From assembly GCA_963780745.1 (NCBI GenBank), contig CAWACT010000010.1:196555-260554 (forward strand): 64,000 bases of DNA, given 5' to 3'. This DNA is from an uncultured Actinomycetes bacterium. GTDB lineage: Bacteria > Actinomycetota > Acidimicrobiia > Spongiisociales > DATADW01. Below, piece after piece: positions 2,089-4,614 of the stretch (position 1 is its first letter; each line of letters begins with the position of its first letter). The translations under genes were made by a program, and so were the position numbers. The notes under the pieces are model-generated. The model searched no databases, was not told the origin of the DNA, and saw only the letters and a program-made list of their open reading frames with translations.

Positions 2089-3027
2089 TCACCCGAGGTC
2101 GATCTGACGAAGCTCGTCAACCTTCTCCTTGACCGCTCCGGCAGCTTGGCGGAGCCCGTTCAACTCGTCCTCGGCAAGCGCGAGCTCGACGATCTCGGTG
2201 ACTCCCCCGGCACCGATCCGAGCAGGAACCCCCAGGTAGACGCCATCGATGCCGTACTGACCCGCCACCCAAGCGCACACCGGTAGCACCTCATTGGTAT
2301 CGCCGAGCACCGACGCGACCATCTGGGCGGCGGCGCTCGATGGGGCGTAATAGGCGCTCCCGGTCTTGAGGAGGCCGACGATCTCGGCGCCGCCCTCACG
2401 GGTTCGCTCCACCAGCTTGTCGATCTCCGAAGCGTCGAGAACATCGGTGAGCGGCCGGCCGGCAACGGTGCAGTGGGATGGCACGGGGACCATGGTCTCG
2501 CCGTGGCTGCCCAGGGTGAGCGCCTCGACTTCGAGGATGTCGCTCCCGGTCGCTTCTGCGATGAAATGGGCAAACCGTGCCGAATCCAGAATCCCAGCCT
2601 GACCCATCACCCGGTCTCGGGGGAAGCCGGACACATCGGCGGCAAGAGTCGTCATGTGGTCGAGCGGGTTGGTGACAACGATGATCACCGCCTCGGGCGA
2701 GCCGGCGGCCACCTCCTCGGTGACCCCCTTGACGATCTTGGCATTGGCCTCGAGGAGGTCCATCCGTGACATCCCGGGCCGGCGAGGCAGCCCGGCGGTG
2801 ATCACTACGACGTCGCTCCCCGCTGTGTCCGCATAGTCGTTGCTCCCCACGACCACCGTGCGGTAGCGCTCGACGGGGCGCGCCTGGTTCATGTCGAGCG
2901 CCAGGCCCTGGGGCAGGCCCTCGACGATGTCGGTCATCACGACCTCGTCCACCAGGTCTGCTTCGGCGATGCGCTGTACCGTCGTCGACCCGTACTTCCC
3001 GGCCCCAACCACCGTCACCTTGCGCAT
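2089..3027 (-). CDS. mdh: Malate dehydrogenase (LDH-like)
   Basis: VVGAG, TAGLPRRPGMSRMDLL, VTNPLD, GSHG, GSAYYAP. Confidence 0.95.
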   Translation of the reverse strand: MRKVTVVGAGKYGSTTVQRIAEADLVDEVVMTDIVEGLPQGLALDMNQARPVERYRTVVVGSNDYADTAGSDVVVITAGLPRRPGMSRMDLLEANAKIVKGVTEEVAAGSPEAVIIVVTNPLDHMTTLAADVSGFPRDRVMGQAGILDSARFAHFIAEATGSDILEVEALTLGSHGETMVPVPSHCTVAGRPLTDVLDASEIDKLVERTREGGAEIVGLLKTGSAYYAPSSAAAQMVASVLGDTNEVLPVCAWVAGQYGIDGVYLGVPARIGAGGVTEIVELALAEDELNGLRQAAGAVKEKVDELRQIDLG

Positions 3028-3135
3028 GATTTCTCCCGTGATGGAGCCGGAAGGGTAGCCAGGACCGCTTTCTGTCCCGATATAGGTTCATCGACCCATT
3101 GACCGCGTGCGCCCTGACAACCCGACAATCTGTAT

Positions 3136-3403
3136 TACGCCCCCCAGGGGGTGAATCAGTAGGGATGCGGAAGAGTCGGTTCGGTCCTCGCAAGGGAACC
3201 GGCGATCACCACTCCGACCCAAGGGGTTGGCCGAAAGGCCCAAGGGGGTGGCGCGGAGAGGTGCGGTGGGGCTGAGCTCAGTAACGGGGAACACTGAGCT
3301 CAGCCCCCACCGGGGGACTTGGAAGTCATACCGAAGAGCATGATGGGTCGTCGCCAGGCGGCCCATCATCTGCGTTCAGACCTCGACACAAGTCATCCCC
3401 AGG
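3136..3403 (+). ncRNA. Candidate structured non-coding RNA (unassigned, possibly Ms1-like)
   Basis: Consecutive stems with GNRA loops (GCAA 3190, GAAA 3233) and G-U pairs that work only on the + strand; long near-perfect stem 3266-3310; upstream TTGACC (3099)...GACAAT (3124). Confidence 0.6.
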
Positions 3404-3411
3404 ACCTCAGT

Positions 3412-4614
<1,203 letters not shown>

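Follow-up and report, generated by a model that had tools for sequence, protein, structure and literature searches.

The window analysed here is a stretch of 64,000 nucleotides (64 kb) from an uncultured bacterium of the Acidimicrobiia (assembly GCA_963780745.1, contig CAWACT010000010.1), and positions below are counted from its first letter. Between the malate dehydrogenase gene mdh and the isocitrate dehydrogenase gene icd, both on the - strand, lies an intergenic gap of 384 bp (3028-3411), which holds a non-coding, structured RNA element of ~240 nt. The best explanation overall, to which we assign a probability of roughly 0.6, is a stand-alone ~240-nt structured small RNA (sRNA) gene whose product acts by its shape. 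That the + strand carries a real sRNA gene of a new family is, as a claim by itself, very likely. In soil and water, Acidimicrobiia are abundant actinobacteria, for the most part uncultured, and the element is a concrete candidate for a shape-dependent regulatory RNA among them.

An earlier reading made from the letters alone (the sequence-only reading) had proposed that the gap contains no credible open reading frame (ORF) and a strongly paired antisense RNA. Its gap length of 385 bp was off by one, and its judgement on coding potential stands. A 93-aa ORF occupies 3088-3369 on the - strand in the source genome, and it has no counterpart in the relative that was checked.

A stable fold conserved in five species

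On the + strand the span 3095-3405 reaches a folding energy of -149.5 kcal/mol (z -4.84; 0/100 shuffles as good), against -138 kcal/mol (z -2.48) on the - strand. The refined span 3137-3377 has a minimum free energy (MFE) of -125.4 kcal/mol on the + strand (z -5.10; 0/200 shuffles as good), and the strong structure proposed for the gap is thereby upheld. The sequences of five species were aligned, and RNAalifold produced a consensus of 79 pairs at -110.9 kcal/mol, a fold that also comes out as the MFE of the source sequence alone. In a model of 69 pairs, standard pairs fill 99.7% of 344 cells, a share that falls to 36-49% when the partners are slid by 1-3 columns. When each species was folded separately, hairpins P0, P3, P4 and P5 were recovered in 5/5 MFEs, the closing stem P1 in 4/5 and hairpin P2 in 3/5.

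The RNA itself was placed at 3137-3377 on the + strand (~241 nt) from contigs in RNA libraries, the drop in conservation outside these bounds, and the MFE. The 5' end falls at ~3137-3139, and the 3' end, at ~3374-3390, is less sharply placed. P0 is a short 5' hairpin (3138-3153, +) in which the pairing is kept while the sequence varies, with CGCCCC/GGGGUG here and CCCAC/GUGGG in the relatives. P1 closes a multi-helix junction by pairing its 5' strand GGAUGCGGA (3163-3171, +) with its 3' strand UCUGCGUUC (3369-3377, +). In the five-species alignment these strands read GGAUGCGRA and UYYGCGUUC, and they form 8 pairs with 100% of cells paired, of which one pair appears as A-U, G-U or G-C and another as G-C or G-U. 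The fold drawn from the letters alone had omitted this conserved stem. It had closed the structure with an outer pairing of GGGGACTTG and CAAGTC..CCCC, which falls in the least conserved linker and tail, is specific to the source genome (G000) and has been replaced by P1.

The inner helices were largely seen correctly beforehand. P2 (3175-3203, +) comprises an 8-bp helix, a GGU internal loop and a 3-bp helix capped by a GCAA tetraloop of the GNRA type. It corresponds to the predicted stem GTCGGTT..CTC-GCAA-GGG..AACCGGC and is invariant in the five species. In P3 (3207-3263, +) the helix measures 4+5(6)+4 bp, is interrupted by the internal loops CCAAGGGG and CAAGRG, and holds a GCC-GNRA-GGC hairpin inside. 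The GGCC-GAAA-GGCC hairpin named from the letters is present, and reads GCC-GCAA-GGC in the relatives. The CCACTCC/GGGGTGG junction proposed together with it is a possible alternative, but the alignment and the MFE both prefer CACC-CUCCG paired with CGGAG-GGUG. One U-A pair of P3 becomes U-G in relative G003 and in the RNA-library contigs.

P4 (3264-3312, +) is a hairpin of ~19 bp with a 10-nt loop, RACGGGGAAC, that is invariant save for its first base. Its stem, GGTGGGGCTGAGCTCAGT / ACTGAGCTCAGCCCCCACC, is the long stem of the sequence-only reading and is conserved in the five-species alignment, as is the inner stem ATGATGGGTCGTC / GGCGGCCCATCAT, now P5. A variable linker of 13-28 nt (3313-3340, +), with indels of 8-15 nt in the relatives, separates P4 from P5. 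P5 (3341-3368, +) stacks on P1 as a hairpin of 12 bp closed by a GCCA loop, with one compensatory pair (C-G to U-A) and one change from G-C to G-U; it probably serves as a terminator in both directions, for icd as well. The three purine-rich words said to precede stems had mixed fortunes: that at 3254 is invariant and base-paired, that at 3168 varies by indels, and that at 3331 is deleted in relatives.

P3 also contains a direct repeat of the 15-mer CCCAAGGGG(K)UGGC, within 3217-3252. Unrelated metagenome contigs (L052, L058) carry the same unit, CCCAAGGGG(K)TGGC, in tandem, two or three times over.

Constraint on the element and its distribution

The full-length element was found by blastn in 4/5 other genomes of the genus, all uncultured Acidimicrobiia, at 81-86% identity. 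The fifth genome (440 contigs) yielded neither the element nor mdh, and the locus is therefore probably unassembled there. In 35 other genomes of the order there were only two blastn matches, of 27-35 nt (E 0.002-0.009). The source assembly (3.45 Mb in 12 contigs, 78% complete) has one copy by blastn and one by covariance model. Many copies per genome would be expected of a dispersed repeat of the repetitive extragenic palindrome (REP) or miniature inverted-repeat transposable element (MITE) type, and this possibility, which the sequence-only reading had held open, is ruled out by the single copy in 3.45 Mb.

Constraint was measured by counting invariant columns after aligning the five species over 3.3 kb around the locus. 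The RNA core (3162-3318) is invariant in 140/157 columns (89%), and P5 with the 3' strand of P1 in 31/37. The count drops to 13/25 in P0, to 2/22 in the linker (3319-3340) and to 5/34 in the tail (3378-3411), and this drop marks the limits of the element. At codon positions 1, 2 and 3, invariance is 91%, 96% and 49% in mdh (third position 154/313) and 95%, 97% and 57% in icd (230/401). Set against these rates, the core is under constraint about equal to that on non-synonymous sites.

This conservation bears on the reading that the locus encodes a tiny protein, a 20-25-codon ORF starting from GTG at 3266 (VGLSSVTGNT[E/D]LSPHRG...) after a GGAGAGG word resembling a Shine-Dalgarno sequence. The frame (3266-3343, +) is open in 5/5 species, its first 17 residues are conserved, and the only two substitutions in its P4 part hit third codon positions, one of them synonymous and the other replacing E by D. 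The conserved part is nucleotide-identical anyway, however, and two substitutions are too few for a codon pattern. The C-terminus and stop position shift with every indel, the start codon and the Shine-Dalgarno-like word are buried in the P3 and P4 helices, and the conservation reaches ~100 nt upstream of the ORF. A protein product is thus most improbable, and a non-coding RNA is the reading pursued below.

A covariance model of the element, R1, was built with 212 positions and 69 pairs. The source genome and 150 sampled genomes each were searched at the level of order, class and phylum, scoring 15 first-look candidates per genome. In the order sample the four genus members scored 224-257 bits and four further matches 20-23 bits. 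The class sample gave a single match at 22.8 bits and the phylum sample zero matches. All five low-scoring matches were judged to be chance. They are terminator hairpins or sit in ORFs: L014 (20.9 bits) forms a hairpin where two ORFs converge, L016 (22.5 bits) falls within ORFs, L013 (22.9 bits) sits where a 396-aa ORF ends, L015 (20.1 bits) amounts to a hairpin of 26 nt, and L024 (22.8 bits, class sample) is inside a 696-aa ORF. An exact 23-mer of P2 occurred at 3 loci in genome contigs, all of the same genus, and at 0 loci in metagenome contigs. A gapped pattern of the P3 internal loops hit 13 loci in metagenome contigs; these were coding sequence, tandem CCCCAAGGGGNTGGC repeats or chance, at no more than 13.7 bits with R1. 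So far, then, the element has been seen in one genus only among the samples of order, class and phylum searched with R1, a model whose reach is limited because it was built from five near-identical sequences and diverged relatives would escape it.

The genes icd and mdh are likewise co-oriented in the sister genus (G006; L022 200-1500) and in a genome from another family of the order (G007; L020 293-1500), but there they stand 1.2-1.3 kb apart, with ORFs lacking a Pfam match in between. Neither R1 nor blastn found the RNA in the icd-mdh interval of G006 or G007. A match of 14/18 positions around GGATGCGAA in G006 (E 5.2) is not significant. The G006 interval includes an opposite-strand ORF that starts with a lipoprotein-like signal, and in the source genus the RNA gene sits in place of that segment.

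Strand, promoter and expression

Several lines of evidence assign the element to the + strand. Counted in each sequence separately, standard pairs make up 67-69 of 68-69 on the + strand and 61-63 on the - strand. The pairs of the 69-pair model that changed on one side only number five; each of these five changes leaves a G-U pair on the + strand, where the - strand would have A-C. The GCAA and GAAA/GCAA tetraloops are GNRA loops on the + strand only. The argument from GNRA loops and G-U pairs made in the sequence-only reading was therefore sound.

The RNA has a putative promoter of its own on the + strand at 3099-3129, with a -35 hexamer TTGACC (3099-3104) and a -10 hexamer GACAAT (3124-3129). 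Both hexamers are conserved, as expected of the promoter picked out beforehand. The spacer is 19 nt in the source genome and 17 nt in all four relatives. In relative L002 the site TTGACC-17-GACAAT (9/12 match) is the sole site in 500 nt, where 0.1 would be expected.

Public runs were then consulted for traces of a transcript. Among the runs holding part of 2500-4000 (20/24 listed), 6 are RNA libraries, and four RNA runs were examined in detail for contigs on the element. Soil DNA runs (X1-X13) also contain relatives. Three soil metatranscriptome runs hold one contig each on the element, from a close relative (8-10 differences), spanning 3141-3387, 3141-3374 and 3148-3532. Two of these contigs extend 2 letters further at the low end and stop there, 2 letters before 3141 and 10 nt past the -10 box. 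Over 3010-3111 the RNA runs examined gave no contig of similar likeness. In a rhizosphere RNA run (X20), mdh is represented by a contig of 97% identity and the RNA element by none, missing cover of this kind being no evidence. The contigs are a hint of expression that fits the promoter, short of proof, and the RNA is probably expressed. Together with the strand bias of the fold and the promoter, they agree with the proposal of an independently transcribed + strand gene.

The alternative at this point is a functional RNA on the - strand, be it an icd 3' untranslated region (UTR), an icd-mdh intercistronic element or a riboswitch-like mdh 5' leader. The genes icd and mdh are co-oriented with the element between them, and most helices form on the - strand too (z -2.48; 58 consensus pairs). 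The contigs are strand-blind, one of them running unbroken from 3148 into icd at 3532, and one change, in the loop-closing pair of P4, gives A-C on the + strand and G-U on the - strand. On the - strand, however, 5-8 pairs per sequence turn into A-C mismatches, and 5/6 one-sided substitutions keep pairing on the + strand only. The - strand consensus reaches just -88.6 kcal/mol and loses P1, and the GNRA loops become UUGC/UUUC. A conserved + strand promoter lies 10 nt upstream of where two contigs end, and an invariant block beside the mdh start, with a -10-like hexamer in it, points to a separate promoter for mdh, downstream of the element. No Rfam riboswitch model matches either strand. A riboswitch or other cis-regulatory 5' leader read from the + strand was rejected as well, there being no same-strand gene next on that strand. 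We regard a - strand RNA as quite improbable and retain the + strand gene.

Comparison with known RNA families

An Rfam cmscan of the 64-kb window gave no family at gathering score. At E up to 10 the element region attracted only miRNA-type hairpin noise on P4, with no Ms1, 6S or raiA, and the four relatives' loci had no match within the element. RNase P RNA, SRP RNA and tmRNA were excluded, since the genome has its own copies at C4:185848-186225, C12:36899-36998 and C8:12769-13122 (contig:positions), respectively. No Rfam family matches the element or the relatives' loci, in line with the new family that had been offered as one option; the element belongs to a family not described in Rfam. 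A full-text literature search, judged from its result listings, brought up no described Acidimicrobiia sRNA of such a kind. Identity with Ms1 or 6S is not supported.

The other option offered from the letters was a divergent Ms1/MTS2823 RNA. Like Ms1 (mycobacteria; scr3559 in Streptomyces), the element is an actinobacterial, independently transcribed, structured sRNA in the range of 230-300 nt. A sigma-70-like promoter, a short hairpin close to either end and a host lineage without detectable 6S are further common points. An Ms1 model is included in Rfam, and Ms1 genes are defined by synteny with oxidoreductase and HAD-IB hydrolase/phosphoserine phosphatase genes, as set out in PMC9130861. The passages on Ms1 in PMC4191392 describe a hairpin of ~300 nt that has a bubble at its centre and is accompanied by two short hairpins at the ends, and report the long hairpin with its central bubble as the feature shown to matter for Ms1 and 6S. 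In contrast, the element matches no Ms1 covariance model even at E up to 10 and sits between icd and mdh. Its predicted fold, compared with Ms1 through the latter's published text descriptions, is a closed multi-helix junction rather than a bubble-bearing long hairpin. By MFE and consensus predictions only, the element has ~241 nt, with P0 and P5 near its ends and three adjacent hairpins inside the closing stem. The resemblance to Ms1 is not supported. In the source genome the HAD-IB gene (C4:55280-55876; 174 bits) is flanked by closely spaced ORFs, without a long intergenic region next to it. This match falls within a 454-aa frame (L049 1480-2844), ~2x the 202 positions of the family model, which may represent a fusion or an over-extended ORF call.

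6S RNA shares with the element a structured body with paired ends, and the element could be as abundant as the stable 6S is. It differs in length (~180-200 nt vs ~240 nt) and in form, a rod whose large central bubble mimics an open promoter and which supports pRNA synthesis vs the branched consensus and MFE folds. The 6S model RF00013 matched 0/41 genomes of the order including the source, and a control search with it matched 5/14 known genomes; its silence says little because it fails on other actinobacteria too. CoRP resembles the element as a genus-restricted, structured actinobacterial RNA without detectable relatives elsewhere. As far as PMC11077062 describes it, CoRP is a 516-nt RNA encoded between tRNA genes and cleaved into two fragments, has homologs only in Corynebacterium, binds RNA polymerase by experimental demonstration, and provides a precedent for genus-restricted RNAs as housekeeping regulators.

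Complex-folded orphan non-coding RNAs such as the raiA motif RNA have helices around a junction, GNRA tetraloops, and conservation of paired as well as unpaired positions. The element is like them in its junction, its GNRA loops, its high conservation and the lack of an obvious coding or cis-regulatory role. Such RNAs are phylum-wide whereas the element is found in one genus, and the element's sequences are too few for covariation statistics.

RNA polymerase binding deserves separate consideration as a special case of the shape-based explanation, in which the element would be a lineage-specific counterpart of 6S, Ms1 or CoRP. It fits the 0/41 result for 6S in the order and the HAD-IB gene of the source genome having no Ms1-type locus beside it. 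Actinobacterial examples can moreover be genus-restricted and unrelated in sequence, CoRP being the case reported in PMC11077062. Its length falls in the range of such RNAs, it has paired 5' and 3' ends with a short hairpin at each, and its sequence was assembled from soil RNA libraries. Against this, the predicted fold is a multi-helix junction lacking the long hairpin with a central bubble, no model matches and the synteny differs from that of Ms1. The distribution is narrow, and as the RNA was not found in the sister genus or other families by R1 or blastn, those would need other RNAs for the same job. About a third of the odds of protein binding go to RNA polymerase as the partner, the most interesting candidate for that role. 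It is unlikely, judged as a claim of its own, that this is an RNA-polymerase-binding housekeeping RNA of soil Acidimicrobiia with a compact junction instead of an open-promoter-like rod and a gene wired to the mdh control region. If it were, RNAs of this function would have arisen independently a third or fourth time, following 6S, Ms1 and CoRP, and transcription capacity would be tuned to the state of the tricarboxylic acid (TCA) cycle via the mdh control region.

Proposed mode of action

We propose that the sRNA gene lies on the + strand, opposite icd and mdh, and would be transcribed from ~3137-3139 by way of the sigma-70-type promoter TTGACC-N17/19-GACAAT. This promoter would stand back to back with the mdh promoter region, with a palindrome (3082-3099) between them. 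The RNA would end after hairpin P5, which probably also terminates icd. The transcript is predicted to adopt a closed, compact fold, in which P0 is followed by P1, joining the 5' and 3' parts and enclosing P2-P5, with two of the hairpins GNRA-capped. It most likely acts through its three-dimensional shape rather than through a linear seed, and the most probable mode would be protein binding, with the RNA sequestering or scaffolding its partner. Protein binding by shape is suggested because the helices, junctions and loops are conserved and the only long unpaired stretch is least conserved. Granted that the gene is real, such binding has a chance somewhat below even.

The same pattern of constraint bears on a base-pairing sRNA, which would use the P4 loop RACGGGGAAC or an AAGAG junction as its seed, with targets maybe in central carbon metabolism. 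Such an RNA would equally be an independent + strand transcript with its own promoter, its conserved 10-nt hairpin loop has the size of a seed, and two TCA-cycle genes adjoin it and share its control region. Constraint is nevertheless even over ~157 nt of helices and junctions (89% invariant), which is unusual for seed-type sRNAs, and relaxes most in the only long unpaired stretch. The exposed loops are also purine- and G-rich, and would not pair with Shine-Dalgarno sequences. A seed-based mode of action is on balance doubtful, and action by shape is the reading we prefer.

A number of observations weigh against the shape-acting sRNA gene. The carriers are five closely related genomes only. 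The conservation that the sequence-only reading had looked for is present in 4/5 other genomes of the genus, and little covariation accompanies it: changes on both sides are seen in just 2 pairs, belonging to P1 and P5 respectively, a count of two-sided changes that 39/500 shuffles reach. Covariation is weak because so little varies, and the structural support is therefore mostly thermodynamic plus invariance. A promoter scan of the source genome locus gave no site, which is explained by the 19-nt spacer with its 2-nt insertion (within 3105-3123), and the insertion may lower expression of the RNA in the source species. Terminator scans of the source locus and of relative L002 found no canonical U-tract terminator. 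Assembled contigs show neither strand, level nor true ends, and DNA is possible in such libraries. One contig continues into icd, to 3532, and the three runs are alike in year, habitat and library type, so that they may stem from one campaign. Protein binding, finally, is argued from the conservation pattern only.

The practical value of the element is limited at present, with one genus, thin covariation and no cultured host. It offers a test case for the speed at which such RNAs turn over between genera.

The control region shared with mdh

Upstream of the mdh start, an invariant block (3041-3061, -) is identical in 5/5 sequences across TGGAGCCGGAAGGGTAGCCAG. From its letters it would be the mdh core promoter, with the -10-like hexamer TACCCT (3057-3052, -) followed by a short 5' UTR bearing a GGGAGA Shine-Dalgarno sequence. 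Between the two divergent promoters lies a conserved 18-bp palindrome, ATAGGTTCATCGACCCAT (3082-3099), which reads ATGGGT-N6-ACCCAT in the four relatives. It corresponds to C10:199636-199653 and abuts the -35 box of the RNA promoter. The conserved control region and the palindrome are shared with mdh, for which reason the RNA is probably regulated together with or opposite to that gene.

The palindrome may be an operator, with some uncertainty because related 18-mers elsewhere are mostly at gene 3' ends. Sites with at most one mismatch to ATGGGT-N6-ACCCAT number 10 in the genome, vs 1 for the reversed control. Among the 7 best sites, 3 come directly after gene ends, those of clpX, etfA/galK and a response regulator, and therefore no regulon can be inferred. 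Palindromes of the form ATGGGTCG-NN-CGACCCAT recur at C7:225759, C9:201675, C9:203622, C3:334262, C4:26106 and C3:195987. Rather than operators, the recurring copies may be short hairpins of the terminator or REP-like kind.

Neighbouring genes

The gene mdh (2089-3027, -) encodes a malate dehydrogenase of 312 aa (NF004863, E 5.6e-118; TIGR01763, E 5.6e-116). It is the downstream gene on the - strand, and its transcription points away from the RNA gene. The gene icd (3412-4614, -) encodes an NADP-dependent isocitrate dehydrogenase of 400 aa (NF005425, E 5.2e-193) and converges on the 3' end of the RNA. The next genes in the + direction from the element are icd, then folD and purH, all on the - strand. 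Elsewhere in the window, a 430-aa ORF (203-1495, +) matches a dapA-type aldolase over residues 7-202 only, at 110 bits vs a curated cut-off of 206, and has a long C-terminal part without explanation.

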